The translations under genes and the position numbers were made by a program. From the IMG/VR virus record IMGVR_UViG_2718217868_000006: a stretch of DNA of 18,841 nt, one strand, 5' to 3'. The notes beneath the pieces are model-generated. The model was given only the letters and a program-made list of their open reading frames with translations. It was not told the DNA's origin and did not search any database. Each line of letters begins with the position of its first letter. Within the stretch, counting starts at the first letter, position 1. Positions 1 to 11,937 of the stretch are shown piece by piece. This DNA comes from a virus (Duplodnaviria; Heunggongvirae; Uroviricota; Caudoviricetes).

Positions 1-585
1 CTATTCGATAATGGGTACTGTTGGCCATTCAATATCCGGTGCAGTTGTTGTATTAACACGGTTCAGCAACACCCGATATTTTTTCCAGGCTTCCAGCAAT
101 GAGGTTTCTTCCTCCGTTGCGATCTCCAGATCTACAGCATCCTGAAGTGGCGCTATATGCTCACTGGCTACCTGCATCAGGCTGTTTTTTGTTTCGTCCG
201 CCTCCCGGATCCGGAACAGTTTTTCTGCTTCCGTATCCTTCACCCAGGCTGTGCCGTTCCACTTCTGATATTCCCCTTCCGGCGATAACCAGGTGACATT
301 TTCCGGTAACGGACCGAGTTCAGAAATAAATAACGCGTCGCCGGAAGCCACGTCATAGACGGTTTTTCCCCGATGATCTTCAACGAGATGCCACGATGCC
401 TCATCACTGTTGAAAACAGCCACAAAGCCAGCCGGAATATCTGGCGGTGCAATATCGGTACTGTTTGCTGGCAGACCTGTATGAGGCGGAATATATGCGT
501 CACCTTCACCAATAAATTCATTAGTTCCGGCCAGCAGATTATAAATTTTTATGGTCCGTGGTTGTTCACTCATTCTGAATGCCAT
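1..585 (-). CDS. tfa: Tail fiber assembly protein (Tfa family)
   Basis: 194-aa ORF, ATG at 585..583, stop at 3..1. Translation recognised as lambdoid tail fiber assembly chaperone; immediately follows a tail-fiber C-terminal ORF with a TAATG stop/start overlap. Confidence 0.8.
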
Positions 586-2459: not shown

Positions 2460-2927
2460 TCATCGAAGGCATTGCGTCCTGATGTATTCCTGAAGCGTTC
2501 TCAGTGCTGTTTGGTCGCGGATAATTCCGTCCCGGATACCGAGAACGTTTCGTCCAGCAACTGGAGAGAGTTCGACGGTGGCATCATTGCCCATGCCGGA
2601 GGCGCTGGAGGTTTCGGCTGAGGATGGCACAGGGCATTTTCCTTTGACGAGCACCCGACCACCATTATCAAGCTTGCGCCGAAGAGCATCATTTTCAGCT
2701 TTCGCATCAGCTAACTCCTTCGTATATTTATCATCGAGTGCATCAGCATCACGCTGGCGCTGCTGCATGTCAGTAATGGTGGCGTTCGCCTTCTCCAGTT
2801 CACTGGCCTTGTTATCGCGCTGTTCTTTGTAGGCGATTGCATTATCACGGTAATGATTAACAGCCCATGACAGGCAGACGATGATGCAGATAACCAGAGC
2901 GGAGATAATCGCGGTTACCCTGCTCAT
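2460..2927 (-). CDS. Rz: Rz i-spanin (inner-membrane spanin subunit)
   Basis: N-terminal transmembrane segment then a charged coiled-coil region; ATG at 2927 overlaps the endolysin stop (ATGA). The ORF track extends to 2939 but 2927 (MSRV...) gives the classic overlap. Contains an embedded Rz1 ORF. Confidence 0.85.
2501..2707 (-). CDS. Rz1: Rz1 o-spanin (outer-membrane lipoprotein), embedded in Rz in another frame
   Basis: 68-aa ORF wholly inside Rz. Signal peptide with lipobox VVGC-S and a proline-rich mature region ([11 protein letters not shown]), like lambda Rz1. Confidence 0.85.
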
Positions 2928-3421
2928 TGTTGCCCCCACAAACAGACCTCACGCTCAATCTCACGACGAGTCATCAGGCCTTTCCATTGCTTACCGCCAG
3001 CGTATGCCCAGCGACGTAGCTGGTCACATGCGCCCTTGATATCGCCCTGGTTTATTTTGCGAAGAAGAGTAGATGTTCTGAAATTGCCTGCGCCCACGTT
3101 ATAGACGAACGAGTAAAGAGCGCCGCGCGTTGTTTCCGGTATATCGACTTTGATGTACGGGTTAATTTGTCTGGCTACCGTGGCAAGGTCTTTATTCAGG
3201 AGGGCTTTGCATTCTGCTTCGGTATACGTTTTACCGGGAATGATGTCTTTTCCTGTATGCCCGTGACATACAGTCCATACGCCAACGATATCTTTGTATG
3301 GTATGTAGCTGACACCTTCCAGACCATCGTTACCACTTGGGCCAGTGATTAACACTGATGCTATAGCAATTGCTCCGCCACCAATAGCAGCAGCAACGGC
3401 TTTTCGTAATGATGGAGGCAT
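2924..3421 (-). CDS. R: SAR endolysin (phage lysozyme, phage 21 R-like)
   Basis: 165-aa ORF with a Gly/Ala-rich N-terminal signal-anchor-release segment ([18 protein letters not shown]) followed by a T4-lysozyme-like domain. Start overlaps the holin stop at 3421. Confidence 0.9.
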
Positions 3422-3636
3422 TATTCACCTCTCGCAGCCTTGCGCTTATCTTCTTTAATCTTGAAATAAAGGTTTGTCAGGTACGTCAGCAGGCCAAATA
3501 CCAGGCTACCCAGCACACCTATTGCTGCCCACTGTGAGGGCGTGACTTTATCGAGCAGCTGTAAAAACCAGTAACCGGCACTACCTGCTGAGGTGCCATA
3601 GGCGACACCCGTTGTTAACTTATCCATGGATTTCAT
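3421..3636 (-). CDS. S: Class II holin/pinholin (phage 21 S-like) with dual-start motif
   Basis: 71-aa ORF beginning MKSM (Met1 at 3636, Met4 at 3627), two transmembrane segments and a charged C-terminus; closely matches remembered S21. SD GGAGGTGAGG upstream. Confidence 0.9.
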
Positions 3637-3823: not shown

Positions 3824-4411
3824 TTACATCATGTCTTTTTCTAAAAAAAATCTTGATGAATATTGATGGAGAGGAACACCAAAATACCTTCTGAAAACAC
3901 TTACAAAATATGACGTGTTTTCATAACCGCATATCTCAGCAACTTTTCCAACAGAATATAAATTGTAGCTTAATAACCTTTCCGCCATCACCATTCGCTC
4001 TTCAAGAATTAACTTACTAAATGATAAGCCTTCGTGCTTTAATTTTCTTTTTAACAGACTTTCACTCAGATACAGTCTTGAAGATATATCACAAAGTCTC
4101 CATGCTGCAGATATATCCGTATGAATAATAGCCTTAACTTTACTTCCTAAACTATTAAGACATCCAAATAAAAAACTTTGCACTATTTTCTCTGAAGATA
4201 AGATAGCAAGACATGCAAGTGATATTTGATTTCTAACAAAATCCACAGTTCTGCCATCACAATTCAAGCATGCAATCAAGTTCTTTAACAATGAAAAATC
4301 TTCACATTCCACCATCAAGTATGCCGGATAAAACCTTCTTACAGAAAAAGGTGAGAGTGTGTTGCTTTTAAAGAAATCATTAACTGTTTTCTCTTCAACA
4401 TCTACGATCAT
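3824..4411 (-). CDS. AraC/XylS-family transcriptional regulator (short, AT-rich cargo gene)
   Basis: 195-aa ORF with a C-terminal double helix-turn-helix region typical of AraC-family proteins (…SFSKLILEERMVMAERLL…VGKVAEICGYENTSYFVSVFRRYFGVPLHQY). Markedly AT-rich coding and flanking DNA. Confidence 0.7.
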   Translation of the reverse strand: MIVDVEEKTVNDFFKSNTLSPFSVRRFYPAYLMVECEDFSLLKNLIACLNCDGRTVDFVRNQISLACLAILSSEKIVQSFLFGCLNSLGSKVKAIIHTDISAAWRLCDISSRLYLSESLLKRKLKHEGLSFSKLILEERMVMAERLLSYNLYSVGKVAEICGYENTSYFVSVFRRYFGVPLHQYSSRFFLEKDMM

Positions 4412-4904
4412 TACATGATCTATATTTGATGAAAAAAATCTTTTAAATTGTAATCAATGAGAACAGCACTTCCTTTTTAAACAAAATATCTTCTTTACCA
4501 ATTCGGACATCAAACGAGTTCAACACCAAAATAATAGAACATATGTATGGCATATTATCCACCTGATATCATTGGGGTTACACCAGGTAAGTATAGGTGG
4601 AAAATCAATATTCGCCAGTTCAACAATAAGGAAAATTTCATTGCATCACAAGTATAAAATTATGTATTTAACTCACAAAGACAAATTATTAAACCAATCT
4701 GTTATATTATATATAGCTGCGTGGAATCATAATATTATATATTTTGACTGGCATGTTTACCAACTTTAAGTTGCATCTCAATTGTTTCTTCAGCGTAAAC
4801 AGAGTTTTTATACAAACTGACACTCTGGGTATCATAGTGTAGTTTTTACGATTGTAAATATCCTGCATGCAGGAACTCATCCTTTTGGATGATATCGCAT
4901 ACAA

Positions 4905-5864
4905 TTAATTTACCATCAGTCTTAGAGCCAGTTCGTCCGGATAGGGATCGAAGTAATTCTGTGTAAGCAAGTAATCATTAGGATACTCACCCAGATAATG
5001 CTTCAGCAGAGTCAACGGCGCAAGAAGAGGTAATGTGCCAGAACGATAGTTAAGTATAACCTCGCTCAACTCTTTACGCTGGCGTGTACTTAAGTAGTTA
5101 CTAAAATACCCCTGTATATGCATCAGCACATTCGTGTGATTTTTACGTGATGCAGGTTTTCTGAGAATCGCCATCAGCTTATCACGATACACCTCAAAGT
5201 ATGATTCAAGGTCCGCCCACTCGTGTATTGCAGCCACAAATGGTCCCATATCTTTATAGCCTGCCTGACTATGCGCCAACAACTGAAGCTTATAACGACT
5301 ATGAAAAGCTAATAACTCTCTTCTTGATAATTTCTCCTTGTAAAGGTGATTGAGCTCATGCAAAGCAAAAACTCTTTCAACAAAATTCTCACGAAGCACT
5401 GGATCATGTAATCGCCCATCCTCTTCAACCGGTAGCCAGGAAAACTTTTCCATCAAAGTGCTCGTAAATAGTCCCACTCCATCTTTACGACCTCGATTAC
5501 CATTTTCATCATAGACACGCACGCGCTCCATGCCACAGCTGGGAGATTTAGCACAAACCACAAACCCCGATACATCCTTTAATTTGTCCATATAAGAACG
5601 ACTAAACTCTGTCATTCTCTCTGTCACATCCTCATTCTGGTCGTGGCTGAAACACATCCGTATATTTCCTTGCATCGAGCGCACAAGACGTAGAGCAGGA
5701 CGCGGAACTGGCAGCCCTATAGCCATTTCCGGACATACTGGTCTGAATGTTACCCATTCCACTAATTTGTCCATTAAAAAGTCAGCTCTTTTGTGACCAC
5801 CATCAAAACGAACAGCAGAACCGGCCAAACAACCGCTGATTCCAATCACAGGTTTTTTTATCAT
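4905..5864 (-). CDS. DUF523(TudS-like)/DUF1722 fusion protein, putative [4Fe-4S] thionucleoside desulfidase (RudS-like)
   Basis: 319-aa ORF. N-terminal half has the three-Cys signature of DUF523/TudS (GISGCLAG, RPVCPE, SPSCG); C-terminal half resembles YbgA-type DUF1722. SD AGGGGGAGAAT upstream of ATG at 5864. Confidence 0.65.
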   Translation of the reverse strand: MIKKPVIGISGCLAGSAVRFDGGHKRADFLMDKLVEWVTFRPVCPEMAIGLPVPRPALRLVRSMQGNIRMCFSHDQNEDVTERMTEFSRSYMDKLKDVSGFVVCAKSPSCGMERVRVYDENGNRGRKDGVGLFTSTLMEKFSWLPVEEDGRLHDPVLRENFVERVFALHELNHLYKEKLSRRELLAFHSRYKLQLLAHSQAGYKDMGPFVAAIHEWADLESYFEVYRDKLMAILRKPASRKNHTNVLMHIQGYFSNYLSTRQRKELSEVILNYRSGTLPLLAPLTLLKHYLGEYPNDYLLTQNYFDPYPDELALRLMVN

Positions 5865-6056
5865 ATTCTCCCCCTTGACTAATTCATTAACACATAAACT
5901 GTGTAGTGCACGGAATAAATTGCCTTTCTGGCGTCATCACTGACAATTTTTCTGTTATGGACTATTCCTAATATAGTATGAAAGTTCTTTAAGTGATCGG
6001 TCGTAATCATCTATCTTTCATACTTACTCTCAACTATCAAAAGTACAGGATTTATT

Positions 6057-6581
6057 ATGAAGTTATGGCCTGTGTTGACTGGCATTGCACTCTCTTTCAC
6101 TCTTATAGCATGTAAGGCCCCGACACCACCTAAAGGTGTGCAGCCGATTACAAATTTTGACGCCAACCGCTACCTCGGAAAATGGTATGAAATAGCTCGC
6201 CTCGAGAACCGGTTCGAACGTGGTCTGGAACAGGTCAGCGCTACTTATGGAAAACGGAACGACGGAGGGATTCGTGTACTTAACCGTGGATACGATCCAA
6301 CGAAAAATAAATGGAGCGAGAGCGAAGGTAAAGCATACTTTACTGGAGATACTAAAACTGCAGCATTGAAGGTTTCGTTTTTTGGCCCCTTCTATGGTGG
6401 CTATAATGTAATCAAACTGGATGATGAGTATAAGTATGCTCTTGTCAGTGGTCCGAACAGAGAATACCTATGGATTCTGGCAAGGACCCCAACTATTCCA
6501 GATAAAGTAAAAGCAGACTATGTGCGAACCGCTCAAAAGTTGGGATTCAATGTCAATGAATTATTATGGGTTAAACAATAA
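6057..6581 (+). CDS. Bacterial lipocalin (Blc-like outer-membrane lipoprotein)
   Basis: 174-aa ORF with lipoprotein signal (lipobox LIAC) and strong similarity to remembered E. coli Blc (…FDANRYLGKWYEIARLENRFERGLE…KVSFFGPFYGGYNVI…YLWILARTP…). Encoded opposite to late transcription. Confidence 0.85.
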   Translation: MKLWPVLTGIALSFTLIACKAPTPPKGVQPITNFDANRYLGKWYEIARLENRFERGLEQVSATYGKRNDGGIRVLNRGYDPTKNKWSESEGKAYFTGDTKTAALKVSFFGPFYGGYNVIKLDDEYKYALVSGPNREYLWILARTPTIPDKVKADYVRTAQKLGFNVNELLWVKQ

Positions 6582-6609
6582 AATCCCTACCCGAAATAAT
6601 ACTTATTAG

Positions 6610-6636
6610 AAAAAAACCAGCCTTTGGGGAGGCTGG
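6610..6636 (-). terminator. Intrinsic terminator downstream of Q (tR'-like)
   Basis: On the - strand: CCAGCC-UCCCCAAA-GGCUGG hairpin followed by U7, about 100 nt after the Q stop, where a lambdoid late-leader terminator is expected. Confidence 0.55.
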
Positions 6637-6736
6637 CTAAATCAGGAAACAAGCTGTTATATGATAATAACTACGTTGCGATTCCAACATTTAAAATGTT
6701 AGACTAATGACAATCAGACAGCAACTTTTCCTTTAA
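6637..6736 (-). promoter_or_regulatory. Putative late promoter PR' / Q-utilisation region
   Basis: Position only: between the Q stop and the tR'-like terminator. Candidate -35/-10 hexamers (TTGCTG, 17-nt spacer, TAACAT on the - strand) are weak and not verified. Confidence 0.35.
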
Positions 6737-7129
6737 TTATTTCGAACAATCAGCATCCATCTCCAATCGGAGATCCAACACCATCAGCATACCCTCCACT
6801 ACGCCCTCAGCTTTCTGAAGCATCCTGCCAACCCAACAATCAGATCGCCCATGCTTACGTGCAAGCGCCATAAAAGTCATGCCGCCGACATAATAGTCCA
6901 CCAATAAATCATGCAAATCGCTGTTGTTCTTTTTCAGACGGGCCATGCACCCGCAAATGATCATCGCGTCATCGTCACAACATTGTGGGCGAGATTTTAC
7001 TTTTGAAGGAATTAATCCCTTAAAACCGGCGGCAATGGACGACCAGGTCACATCTTCATGATTATTAGCCGCCCACGCTCCCCAACGCTCAAGAACCATC
7101 TGAATATCACGCATCAACTTACTCCACAA
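6737..7129 (-). CDS. Q: Late-gene antiterminator Q (DLP12 QuuD / phage 21-82 type)
   Basis: 130-aa ORF with a Cys-rich segment ([12 protein letters not shown]) and similarity to remembered QuuD; sits between rusA/ylcG and the lysis genes. Start may be the internal Met at 7114. Confidence 0.75.
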
Positions 7130-7199: not shown

Positions 7200-7340
7200 T
7201 CATACTCCTGCTCCTGTCAGTGTTTTGGCGTAATTCTTCAGTATTCGGTAATCGGTCAAAACAGAACCGGGGAAACGATATAAGCGCAGACGCCCCCAGC
7301 GGTGGCGAAGAAGTTCTGCCATATTAAACTCAAACATCAT
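7200..7340 (-). CDS. ylcG: YlcG-like small protein (46 aa)
   Basis: Not on the ORF track (under 60 aa). ATG at 7340 overlaps the rusA stop (ATGA); translation [46 protein letters not shown] matches remembered DLP12 YlcG, between rusA and Q. Confidence 0.6.
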
Positions 7341-7699
7341 TCATTCCCCATTTCGGTGATGGTCAGTTCCAGCCTCCCACCTTTGGTAACAGGCATCTTC
7401 ACAACGCGGTAATCAACGACCTGAGCATCATCCAGCCAGAAACCTGCTTTAGTGAGTGCGTCAAAAGCGGCTTTTTGCAGATTATCCAGGTCACGGCGAC
7501 GGCGATCCGGCATGTGGCACTCAATGCGGATTTTCACAGGCATAGTCAGGCCGATATCCAGCATTGCGTTTTTAATGATTCGGGCGACGTTATCGCGGTA
7601 TGCCTGCCCCTCTGCGCTGACGTGCGTGCGCCCGCGATTATGGCGGTAATAGCGATTATTGCTCGGAGGCCAGGGTAATGTGATGCTGTAGGTATTCAC
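7337..7699 (-). CDS. rusA: Holliday junction resolvase RusA
   Basis: 120-aa ORF, GTG start, near-identical to remembered E. coli RusA ([26 protein letters not shown]…). Confidence 0.9.
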
Positions 7700-11700: not shown

Positions 11701-11772
11701 GCGCGGCGTTACCGCATACCAATAACGCTTCACTCGAGGCGTTTTTCGTTATGTATAAATAAGGAGCACACC

Positions 11773-11937
11773 ATGCAATATGCCATTGCAGGGTGGCCTG
11801 TTGCTGGCTGCCCTTCCGAATCTTTACTTGAACGAATCACCCGTAAATTACGTGACGGATGGAAACGCCTTATCGACATACTTAATCAGCCAGGAGTCCC
11901 AAAAAATGGATCAAACACTTATGGCTATCCAGACTAA
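11773..11937 (+). CDS. cIII: CIII (FtsH/HflB inhibitor stabilising CII)
   Basis: Not on the ORF track (54 aa). Translation [54 protein letters not shown] matches remembered lambda CIII; SD AAGGAG upstream. Confidence 0.9.
   Translation: MQYAIAGWPVAGCPSESLLERITRKLRDGWKRLIDILNQPGVPKNGSNTYGYPD

Follow-up and report, generated by a model that had tools for sequence, protein, structure and literature searches.

Sequence and structure comparisons confirmed that the window (the whole 18,841-nt stretch of viral DNA analysed here) carries a real and intact gene for a Blc-type lipocalin, predicted to reside in the outer membrane, and tree and identities showed this to be a second enterobacterial paralogue, separate from the orthologue of the ampC–blc–sugE locus. 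The gene is linked to that for RudS, a tRNA 4-thiouridine de-modifying enzyme, and is under strong purifying selection. Our preferred reading, to which we would give a probability of roughly 0.45, is that the lipocalin is one half of a captured two-gene stress module and that it would be expressed in the lysogen and overrun by antisense transcription on induction; the promoter, the lysogen-specific expression, the antisense silencing, the ligand and the stress role are what we infer for its function. The features discussed are collected in Table 1.

Table 1. Features of the lipocalin locus, in window coordinates.
Feature	Position	Strand	Basis
Lysis genes (holin 3421–3636, lysozyme 2924–3421, Rz 2460–2927)	2460..3636	−	RefSeq annotation
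AraC-family (YdeO/GadX-like) regulator, frameshifted in the window; third conserved cargo gene of the Q-to-lysis block	3824..4553	−	Profiles, annotation
RudS (TudS desulfidase domain + DUF1722), tRNA 4-thiouridine de-modifying enzyme	4905..5864	−	Pfam PF04463 + PF08349
RudS–lipocalin divergent intergenic region, 192 bp, presumed site of both promoters	5865..6056		Fixed gap and alignment
TGCACTACAC 10-mer, 46 nt upstream of the RudS start codon	5901..5910	−	Motif comparison
Lipocalin-proximal 125 nt, unusually conserved across phage alleles	5932..6056	+	Comparison with phage 1H12
AATATAGTATGAAAGTT, counterpart of the conserved AATATACTACGAAT box that adjoins the merR start codon in chromosomal loci	5970..5986		Alignment
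CATACTTA, weak candidate −10 of a putative lipocalin promoter	6019..6026	+	Aligns with chromosomal CTACACTTAA
Predicted lipoprotein signal peptide, residues 1–19	6057..6113	+	Lipobox L16-I17-A18-C19, Lys at +2
Lipocalin CDS, Blc family, MerR/RudS-linked paralogue	6057..6581	+	ATG start, 174 aa; profile, structure and tree
Intrinsic terminator, tR'-like, late strand	6610..6638	−	9-bp stem (6615–6638), then seven U
Q-stop-to-terminator region, expected to hold pR' and the Q-loading site	6639..6736	−	Position; promoter candidates only
Antiterminator Q, QuuD-like, 125 aa	6737..7114	−	Pfam Phage_antitermQ E = 2.5e-51, RefSeq annotation

The lipocalin and its closest relatives

The ORF matches Pfam Lipocalin_2 (PF08212, calycin; E = 7e-44, 149.7 bits against a cut-off of 24) over residues 35–174 and the NCBIfam model 'outer membrane lipoprotein Blc' (NF007786; 316.1 bits against a cut-off of 267) over profile positions 1–174 of 176, and its match to E. 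coli Blc (3MBT) has E = 3.5e-69. The AlphaFold (AF2) model (mean pLDDT 81.5) predicts a lipocalin barrel of eight strands (residues 41–142) followed by a C-terminal helix (residues 149–161); it fits the Blc structures 3MBT, 2ACO and 1QWD with an rmsd of 1.2–1.6 Å, and Foldseek TM-scores to wild-type Blc structures are 0.87–0.95 when normalised to the target. The G-x-W motif of the first structurally conserved region, at the start of strand A, is present as G41-K-W43-YEIAR, with G41 and W43 invariant across the lipocalin alignments. Profiles, the 3MBT match and the predicted fold thus agree with the conserved lipocalin core of the original prediction, and the lipoprotein signal with a LIAC lipobox that it had also described was upheld. 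The signal is made up of Lys2, a hydrophobic core and L-I-A-C with Cys19 and Lys at +2; a PROSITE PS51257-type rule is satisfied by the window lipocalin and by every relative checked, and Cys19 is shared by all the close relatives aligned. Lipidation is predicted, and the absence of Asp at +2 agrees with the sequence rule for outer-membrane sorting of the Blc subfamily. E. coli Blc (1QWD, 2ACO, 3MBT) resembles the window lipocalin in fold, length, position of the Cys19 lipobox and PTPP linker, but has Ser instead of Lys at +2, and at its polymorphic G84/E84 site the window lipocalin has Asn (read off the alignment).

Comparison with phage 1H12 gives a dN/dS of 0.06 and pooling of 21 alleles one of 0.14, and none of the 80 viral contigs carries a disrupted copy. 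A chance ORF is excluded because the frame is intact in all 80 contigs at these values of dN/dS. The gene is also intact in the window itself, where it lies in a decayed prophage whose neighbouring genes include pseudogenes.

The original prediction took the gene for a diverged copy of blc and not the chromosomal gene. The second part stands, as the protein is only 57–61% identical to Blc proteins encoded next to ampC and sugE (59–60% for that of E. coli); the first does not, since it represents a separate paralogue linked to merR and rudS and not a diverged blc. Its identity to the MerR-linked lipocalins is 74–82%, and in a neighbour-joining tree the phage protein is nested in the MerR-linked clade in 98/100 bootstraps; tree and identities both argue against orthology with the blc of the ampC–blc–sugE locus, and the window gene lies in another genomic setting. 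Both paralogues are present in Buttiauxella izardii (loci L017 and L022). Near-identity to the host blc was looked for and not found, and recent capture of that gene is ruled out by a nucleotide identity of ~66%, a level that is borderline for blastn detection.

The lipocalin had also been described as unusual in such a place, a view that its distribution contradicts. At ≥95% identity it is present in ~1045 of 5426 complete E. coli genomes (about 19%) and in many isolated lambda-like phages, where it is annotated as lipocalin or Blc, and Mathieu et al. (2020, PMC6969025) reported the moron blc from >50% of lambda phages of the gut. The gene is thus already known, from RefSeq and phage-record annotation as well as from that study as a frequent lambda moron. 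A literature search on prophage or lambdoid lipocalins returned mostly host lipocalin-2, with Mathieu et al. the sole relevant work found, and PMC7724020, a 2026 bioRxiv preprint about hybridisation of prophages, PMC13308129 and PMC8733641 proved to have no bearing on the gene; transcript, protein or phenotype data for the prophage lipocalin were not found, and the strain-dependent 'Blc' of STEC proteomics (A0A7U9G1P7, PMC9731836) was absent from the cluster listing that was checked for a tie to it. One of these morons, gp65 of phage 1H12, is the same gene (97% amino acid and about 95% nucleotide identity) and lies between Q and gp66, matching the position in the window; the differences are allelic only. 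The carriers differ, that in the window being what remains of a defective prophage at the attachment site of lambda.

Linkage to RudS and the MerR-linked loci

The window RudS is 93% identical to RudS_vir of phage 1H12 and contains both of the fused domains, and therefore qualifies as a RudS. Enzymes of this type remove the UVA-sensitive 4-thiouridine (s4U) from tRNA, and RudS_vir lowers tRNA s4U, being active although weaker than other RudS enzymes (PMC11417400). The order RudS(−), lipocalin(+), Q(−) with fixed spacings was found in 80 of the 80 IMG/VR viral contigs examined, and the first two genes are nearly equal in GC content (lipocalin 43.8%, RudS 43.3%). In the Qin prophage of AS19, a strain derived from E. 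coli B, RudS is split by IS3 and the lipocalin is intact; since E. coli B has thus kept the lipocalin after losing RudS, the two need not act together.

The paralogue is found on the chromosomes of Enterobacter, Leclercia, Buttiauxella and Raoultella and on IS26-bounded plasmid segments, where it adjoins an MlrA-like MerR regulator and RudS. The chromosomal order (loci L004 and L009–L018) is RudS(−), (transthyretin-like(−)), MerR(−), lipocalin(+), with RudS proteins 69–73% identical to that of the window, and on an E. coli plasmid the four-gene locus (RudS, transthyretin-like, MerR, lipocalin) is flanked by copies of IS26. In Cedecea and Scandinavium the regulator is followed, instead of by RudS, by an operon of SnoaL-like, SDR, FAD-oxidase, DUF1365 and CFA-synthase-like genes. 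The MerR-linked lipocalins of all six genera and of the IS26 plasmid segments share the 174-aa architecture of the phage copy, and a RudS-containing divergent neighbourhood and promoter-proximal homology are common to these loci and the phage. The phage locus differs in lacking the MerR regulator and the transthyretin-like gene, in the lower GC content of its lipocalin (44% vs 51–60%) and in that the TGCACTACACTTAA box of the MerR-linked loci is degenerate 5' of the gene. Taken together the comparisons indicate that the lipocalin arrived jointly with the adjacent RudS from a light- or oxidative-stress locus of other enterobacteria, and not from E. coli blc. Enterobacter was ruled out as the direct donor (GC 57–60% vs 44%, amino acid identity only about 80%).

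A parallel is offered by photo-oxidative-stress operons under sigmaE–ChrR or MerR control, in which a lipocalin is co-regulated with CFA-synthase-like, FAD-oxidase and related genes, as for S. maltophilia Smlt2367, which shows 165-fold co-induction with two CFA synthases under sigmaEc–ChrR (PMC11832516). The neighbours of the Cedecea and Scandinavium orthologues are of the same kind, whereas the phage lipocalin retains RudS as its sole partner; the likeness drawn here is one of gene context. In two distant MAGs the gene directly upstream of the lipocalin encodes a photolyase, and the majority of the distant lipocalin loci (~50 examined) are without light- or oxidative-stress neighbours. A literature search on DUF1365 together with lipocalin found nothing. 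The connection of the lipocalin with light or oxidative stress is one of guilt by association.

Orientation, late transcription and the upstream region

The genes cro, cII, rusA, ylcG, Q, RudS, holin, lysozyme and Rz all lie on the minus strand and the lipocalin on the plus strand, convergent with Q, to which it is linked in all 80 viral loci. The terminator between them (−14.9 kcal/mol, z = −3.3) lies 99 nt past the Q stop codon and 34 nt past that of the lipocalin, and in phage 1H12 it is identical save for the length of the A/T run. Gene strands and a minus-strand terminator where tR' is expected bear out the earlier claim that the lipocalin is antisense to the late transcript and faces a tR'-like terminator, although the feature had been drawn to position 6636, which is 55 nt beyond the lipocalin stop codon and inside the terminator hairpin. 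The label tR' is one of position and strand, because pR' was not pinned down: a scan gave a computed candidate (TGGAGA-18-AATAAT, 6765..6736), a second was picked from the sequence by eye (TTGCTG-17-TAACAT), and alignment with DLP12/434B downstream of quuD, confined to the end of Q and a short stretch, TATATAACAG, did not identify the promoter. On the plus strand no terminator with a U tract was found for the lipocalin, the hairpin in that direction having none. An Rfam search of positions 5700–6900 returned nothing at or above threshold; its only hits were a spurious one to mir-7 and one on the terminator that fell below the cut-off.

From the annotation, the lysis genes depend on late transcription that traverses the cargo block. 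In DLP12/434B the slot between Q and the lysis genes is taken by nmpC in opposite orientation, and in 57 of 69 phage records the Q gene region is shared and the lipocalin region unmatched (at the megablast level), which makes this a variable cargo slot; in base composition the lipocalin is not distinct from its phage flanks (43.8% GC, against 45% for the window). Of the 80 viral loci, 75 yielded the AraC-family regulator, and most of the remaining contigs end short of it. By analogy, an envelope moron that is expressed in lysogens normally runs antisense to late transcription: among genes for outer-membrane proteins, the nmpC/lc porin genes, lambda bor and Bor-like genes also lie opposite the late operon in or near the lysis region, and the Bor-like gene of phage 1H12 is likewise opposite to the lysis genes. 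The proteins of bor and nmpC/lc are unrelated to the lipocalin and presumably expressed in lysogens; unlike those genes, the lipocalin is accompanied by a sense-oriented partner, RudS.

Upstream of the lipocalin the intergenic gap (reported as 193) is constant in 77 of 78 viral loci, and the phage region aligns with the chromosomal merR–lipocalin intergenic region. Between the window and phage 1H12 the 125 nt nearest the gene differ at 5 positions (4%), whereas synonymous sites of the lipocalin differ by 17.8% (binomial P = 3e-6); so low a divergence could reflect mosaic allele history and not constraint. In the chromosomal orthologues a sigmaS-like CTACACTTAA box is conserved about 44 nt before the ATG, and at that place the phage has CATACTTA. 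E. coli blc is reportedly RpoS-dependent, an observation credited to Bishop in 1995, and the box of the orthologues resembles that. Against a promoter here it counts that the candidate −10, CATACT, is without the conserved −12 T and that this base varies between alleles, the first base of the candidate being C in the window and A in 1H12; a promoter scan found no strong sigma70 match upstream of the lipocalin. Of the other conserved elements, AATATAGTATGAAAGTT may be a remnant of the merR promoter that now faces RudS; as for TGCACTACAC, each of 12 MerR-linked loci (chromosomal, plasmid or metagenomic) has a single copy about 44 nt 5' of the lipocalin ATG, Raoultella carrying the variant TGCACGACAC. 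Because the chromosomal MerR regulator is absent from the phage, expression of the lipocalin could be constitutive or weak, or could require a host factor.

Loss of the accompanying regulator, the weakness of the candidate promoter and the lack of any known phenotype would all suit a neutral hitch-hiker without a role for phage or host, kept through its place between Q and the RudS and lysis genes. We consider this improbable, given the low dN/dS over 21 alleles (0.06–0.14), the 0 of 80 copies disrupted, the survival of the gene intact in degraded prophages with pseudogene neighbours and the conservation of the upstream region.

Possible roles of the lipocalin

The original prediction pointed to superinfection exclusion or envelope protection as common roles of phage-encoded outer-membrane lipoproteins. 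In an exclusion or phage-defence role the lipocalin would block adsorption or DNA entry of other phages, as Cor or Llp do. Phage-encoded outer-membrane lipoproteins with exclusion roles exist (Cor, Llp), the gene has the orientation of a lysogen-type gene, and the PHROGs entry phrog_2809 reads 'unknown function', so that nothing there speaks against such a role. On the other side, there was no match in PADLOC-DB at E ≤ 0.01, no receptor-binding feature was found in the lipocalin, and the closest relatives (about 80% identity) are chromosomal genes of a conserved stress locus with no obvious phage context. Blc, moreover, sits on the periplasmic face of the outer membrane and not on the cell surface. 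We consider exclusion very unlikely, the least probable of the explanations considered here.

A second copy of ordinary Blc activity deserves more weight, though we regard it as doubtful. The lipocalin would then bind lysophospholipids at the outer membrane in stationary phase and possibly alter gut lysophosphatidylethanolamine (LPE), the linkage to RudS being historical only and without any tie to light or oxidative stress. Consistent with this, the protein passes the NCBIfam Blc subfamily model, has 60% identity and an rmsd of 1.2–1.6 Å to E. coli Blc, is kept intact where IS3 splits RudS, and has chromosomal orthologues with the sigmaS-like CTACACTTAA box; E. coli Blc itself binds lysophospholipids and affects gut LPE (PMC7026729). 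A role not redundant with that of Blc is argued by the fact that E. coli already has blc and that the phage copy derives from a paralogue maintained in its own right, which coexists with blc in Buttiauxella. The universal tight linkage to RudS in phages, and to MerR with RudS or CFA-synthase-like genes in chromosomes, likewise tells against a generic Blc.

According to the captured-module reading that we prefer, RudS and the lipocalin would have been taken up by a lambdoid phage as one module, without the regulator, and placed in the cargo slot that separates Q/pR'/tR' from the lysis genes, after which recombination among lambdoid phages would have spread the cargo block. In the lysogen the lipocalin would be transcribed from its own conserved upstream region while transcripts from pR' end at tR'; on induction, Q-modified polymerase would pass tR', cross the lipocalin antisense and then read RudS in sense as the first late gene. 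The lipocalin would bind hydrophobic molecules of the envelope, such as lysophospholipids or fatty acids and possibly oxidised lipids or tetrapyrroles, and would thereby help the envelope to withstand stationary-phase stress and photo-oxidative stress from UVA or blue light, as a complement to RudS. The ligands reported for E. coli Blc are lysophospholipids and heme or another tetrapyrrole (PMC7026729, PMC8177097), and the biochemical role of Blc is unsettled between lysophospholipid and tetrapyrrole, which counts against our preferred reading.

More speculatively, and with no great confidence, we suggest that RudS and the lipocalin could form a prophage-borne module for UVA or photo-oxidative tolerance that is otherwise absent from E. 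coli, with expression split by orientation. The lipocalin would guard the envelope of the lysogen by handling oxidised lipids, lysolipids or photosensitising tetrapyrroles, and RudS, the first of the Q-dependent late genes to be read once UV-type induction has occurred, would strip cross-linkable s4U from tRNA so that translation of the late proteins is not stalled.

The bare observation of a lipocalin changes little. What is gained is a testable hypothesis, that about one-fifth of complete E. coli genomes carry a RudS–lipocalin pair on a lambdoid prophage, derived from a MerR-controlled enterobacterial stress locus. The statement that E. coli is without RudS homologues (PMC11417400) is qualified by this prophage RudS. 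The pair also gives a functional context for a paralogue of Blc, a family whose physiological role has been unclear since 1995, and it suggests that lysogeny could alter the survival of E. coli under sunlight or oxidative stress outside the gut.

The prophage remnant and its cargo block

The window gave a 100% match (over a 1.7-kb query) to a defective lambda-like prophage of E. coli strain H6 that occupies the lambda attachment site, flanked by the bio/ybhB side and ybhC. In several other genomes an IS2 or IS3 was inserted within the 1.7-kb query segment. On the minus strand of the prophage the early-right and late genes lie in the order cro, cII, rusA, ylcG, Q, a 3-kb cargo block, holin, lysozyme and Rz. 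The prophage is a remnant: the O and P replication genes and nearly all structural genes are absent, cII being followed directly by rusA, and the only head or tail genes left are one for tail-fibre assembly and one fragment. The exo gene (internal stop) and an AraC-like gene are pseudogenes and ea22 is truncated; by their annotation cI (LexA family), N, cIII, kil, gam, bet, xis and int are still intact.

Features of the window and their coordinates
Feature	Position	Strand	Description
IS009	44-242	-	Rfam, 221 bits, above gathering score; inside tail-fibre assembly gene
lysozyme	2924-3421	-	prophage annotation; Rz next
holin	3421-3636	-	prophage annotation
AraC-family regulator gene	3824-4553	-	frameshifted here; best partial matches YdeO, HilD, GadX
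RudS (annotated 'YbgA family')	4905-5864	-	TudS desulfidase domain fused to DUF1722
lipocalin CDS	6057-6581	+	ORF, 174 aa
Q	6737-7114	-	prophage annotation
ylcG	7200-7340	-	prophage annotation
rusA	7337-7699	-	prophage annotation
lambda cIII thermoregulator element	11760-11818	+	Rfam, 88 bits, above gathering score

Identity, orientation and prevalence of the lipocalin gene

The original prediction described the ORF as a Blc-like lipocalin with an LIAC lipobox, diverged from chromosomal blc and antisense to the late genes; this description was accurate, and its interpretation partly correct. The product was matched by Pfam Lipocalin_2 (E = 7e-44), scored above the curated cut-off of NCBIfam NF007786 ('outer membrane lipoprotein Blc') and gave a sequence match to the solved E. 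coli Blc structure with E = 3.5e-69. Blc structures superposed at 1.2-1.6 A on its AlphaFold model (mean pLDDT 81.5), in which eight strands are followed by a C-terminal helix, and the N-terminus satisfies a PROSITE-type lipoprotein rule (Lys2, hydrophobic core, L-I-A-C with Cys19, Lys at +2). Identity to the ampC-linked chromosomal blc is 59-60% for protein and only ~66% for DNA, which rules out recent capture of the host gene.

The gene is on the plus strand, and Q and the lysis genes are on the minus strand. The lipocalin faces, as predicted, a canonical intrinsic minus-strand terminator located between it and Q, 34 nt past its stop codon (9-bp stem and seven U, -14.9 kcal/mol, z = -3.3); the plus-strand reading of the same hairpin lacks the U tract. 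The late promoter pR' was not confidently located in the window. Antisense placement has precedents in nmpC of DLP12/434B (same slot, opposite orientation) and in the Bor-like gene of the isolated lambda-like phage 1H12, which is oriented against the lysis genes.

Of 5426 complete E. coli genomes, roughly 1045 have the gene at 95% nucleotide identity or above, and the exact protein is encoded on at least 1000 contigs. Carriers among isolated lambda-like phages are 1H12, the Lambda_ev series and IdasGreatGrand, several with the annotation 'Lipocalin Blc', and phrog_2809 of PHROGs is a matching full-length family. Mathieu et al. (2020; PMC6969025) named blc as a moron carried by over half of the gut lambda phages in their study. 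The lipocalin is thus a frequent lambda moron that had been described before and, given the antisense precedents also, there is no justification for calling it unusual. In an STEC proteomics study two STEC strains had 4-6 fold higher levels of 'Outer membrane lipoprotein Blc' (A0A7U9G1P7) than EDL933 (PMC9731836); the strains could differ here in whether they carry the prophage lipocalin, and not in regulation.

A MerR/RudS-linked paralogue, probably captured together with RudS

The nearest relatives outside E. coli (74-82% identical) do not adjoin ampC. Enterobacter spp., Leclercia, Huaxiibacter, Buttiauxella and Raoultella have the gene order RudS-type (-), transthyretin-like (-), MerR-family (-), lipocalin (+). 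In Cedecea and Scandinavium the genes that come after MerR are instead SnoaL-like, SDR, FAD amine-oxidase, DUF1365 and CFA-synthase-like. A neighbour-joining tree placed the phage lipocalin within this MerR-linked clade (98 of 100 bootstraps), of which it is a member; canonical Blc (ampC/sugE-linked) forms a separate clade, and Buttiauxella izardii carries both paralogues. The whole four-gene set of RudS, a hydroxyisourate-hydrolase-like gene, MerR and lipocalin is found, together with an AAA ATPase gene, in the MerR-linked locus L004 and on E. coli plasmid pZ1323HEC0108-3 (L173, 1352-6008), where all of these sit between IS26 copies adjoining a class 1 integron remnant, so the module is mobile on plasmids as well as on phages. 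Two distant Bacteroidota MAGs have a lipocalin gene directly preceded, on the same strand, by one for photolyase (L065, 6584-7849; L087, 6682-7944), and in a further locus (L043) there is a RudS-like gene at a distance of 3 kb. Such cases hint weakly at a recurrence, outside Enterobacterales, of the link between lipocalins and light-response genes.

The window RudS is 69-73% identical to the RudS-type proteins of chromosomal lipocalin loci and 93% identical to gp66 of 1H12, tested as 'RudS_vir' by Jamontas et al. (PMC11417400), who did not mention the lipocalin and stated that E. coli lacks RudS homologues. Lysogens are an exception to that statement, since the RudS-start/lipocalin/Q segment occurs in about 1053 of 5426 complete E. 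coli genomes. The 80 IMG/VR contigs retrieved all share one type of Q and one arrangement, and in most the complete series lysozyme (-), holin (-), AraC-like (-), RudS (-), lipocalin (+), Q (-) is seen; spacing is fixed between RudS and lipocalin in 77 of 78 viral loci and identical between lipocalin and Q in 65 of 80. The AraC-like gene, intact in phages (~243 aa), is the third gene of this block in 75 of 80 viral contigs and was not found near chromosomal RudS-lipocalin loci. GC content of both lipocalin and RudS is ~44%, as against 51-60% in chromosomal orthologues. The simplest history is that a RudS-lipocalin module was captured once, that the regulator was lost and that recombination among lambdoid phages then spread the module.

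The 125 nt upstream of the phage lipocalin can be aligned with the region between merR and lipocalin in chromosomal loci. About 44 nt ahead of the ATG these loci share TGCACTACACTTAA, a good match to the sigmaS-type -10 consensus, and the phage has CATACTTA at this position. The 10-mer TGCACTACAC occurs once per locus in the lipocalin promoter region, ~44 nt upstream of the gene, in 12 loci of the MerR-linked type (chromosomal, plasmid or metagenomic; within L004-L018 and L173), and in the window is found instead on the other strand, 46 nt upstream of RudS (5901-5910, minus strand; chance expectation in 192 bp ~4e-4), where 1H12 has TGTACTACAC. The chromosomal RudS genes (L009-L018) are preceded by a conserved dyad, TTGGACA-N12-TGTGTAA, overlapping the likely promoter and resembling the E. 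coli MlrA box TTGTACA-N12-TGTACAA; it is absent from the phage locus. Together with the adjoining MerR protein, 39% identical to E. coli MlrA over its full length, the dyad suggests an MlrA-paralogue regulon that would include RudS.

Selection and a possible role in light stress

Relative to the 1H12 allele (gp65) the lipocalin has 26 nucleotide differences and only five amino-acid changes (dN/dS 0.06; 0.14 pooled over 21 alleles). None of 80 copies is disrupted, and the gene is intact within the decayed prophage studied here. In the Qin prophage of strain AS19, an E. coli B derivative, RudS is split by an IS3 and the adjoining lipocalin is intact (L172, 6588-9525). Purifying selection on the gene contradicts the alternative that lipocalin is a neutral hitch-hiker. 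The 125 nt upstream of the lipocalin differ from 1H12 at five positions, against ~22 expected at the synonymous-site rate (P = 3e-6); a mosaic history could contribute to this low divergence.

In the lysogen, lipocalin would be expressed from a promoter of its own and, after lipidation at Cys19, would go to the outer membrane; constitutive pR' transcripts would end at the terminator. The lysis genes lie beyond the cargo block, so on induction Q-modified polymerase would have to pass through it, reading lipocalin in antisense and RudS in sense. The biochemical role would be that of the Blc family, E. coli Blc having as ligands lysophospholipids and heme or another tetrapyrrole (PMC7026729, PMC8177097). 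Lipocalins are also found in oxidative-stress lipid-modification operons (PMC11832516). The suggested superinfection-exclusion role is an alternative against which stand the lack of a PADLOC match for the lipocalin and its nearest relatives, which are chromosomal stress-locus genes. The RudS/MerR context points to a tie with UVA or blue-light stress, RudS being a tRNA 4-thiouridine desulfidase; this tie is a proposal from guilt by association, and another alternative is a generic second Blc unconnected to RudS. What is new is that the frequent lambda lipocalin belongs to the MerR/RudS-linked paralogue and was probably co-captured with RudS, which leads to a testable stress-module hypothesis.
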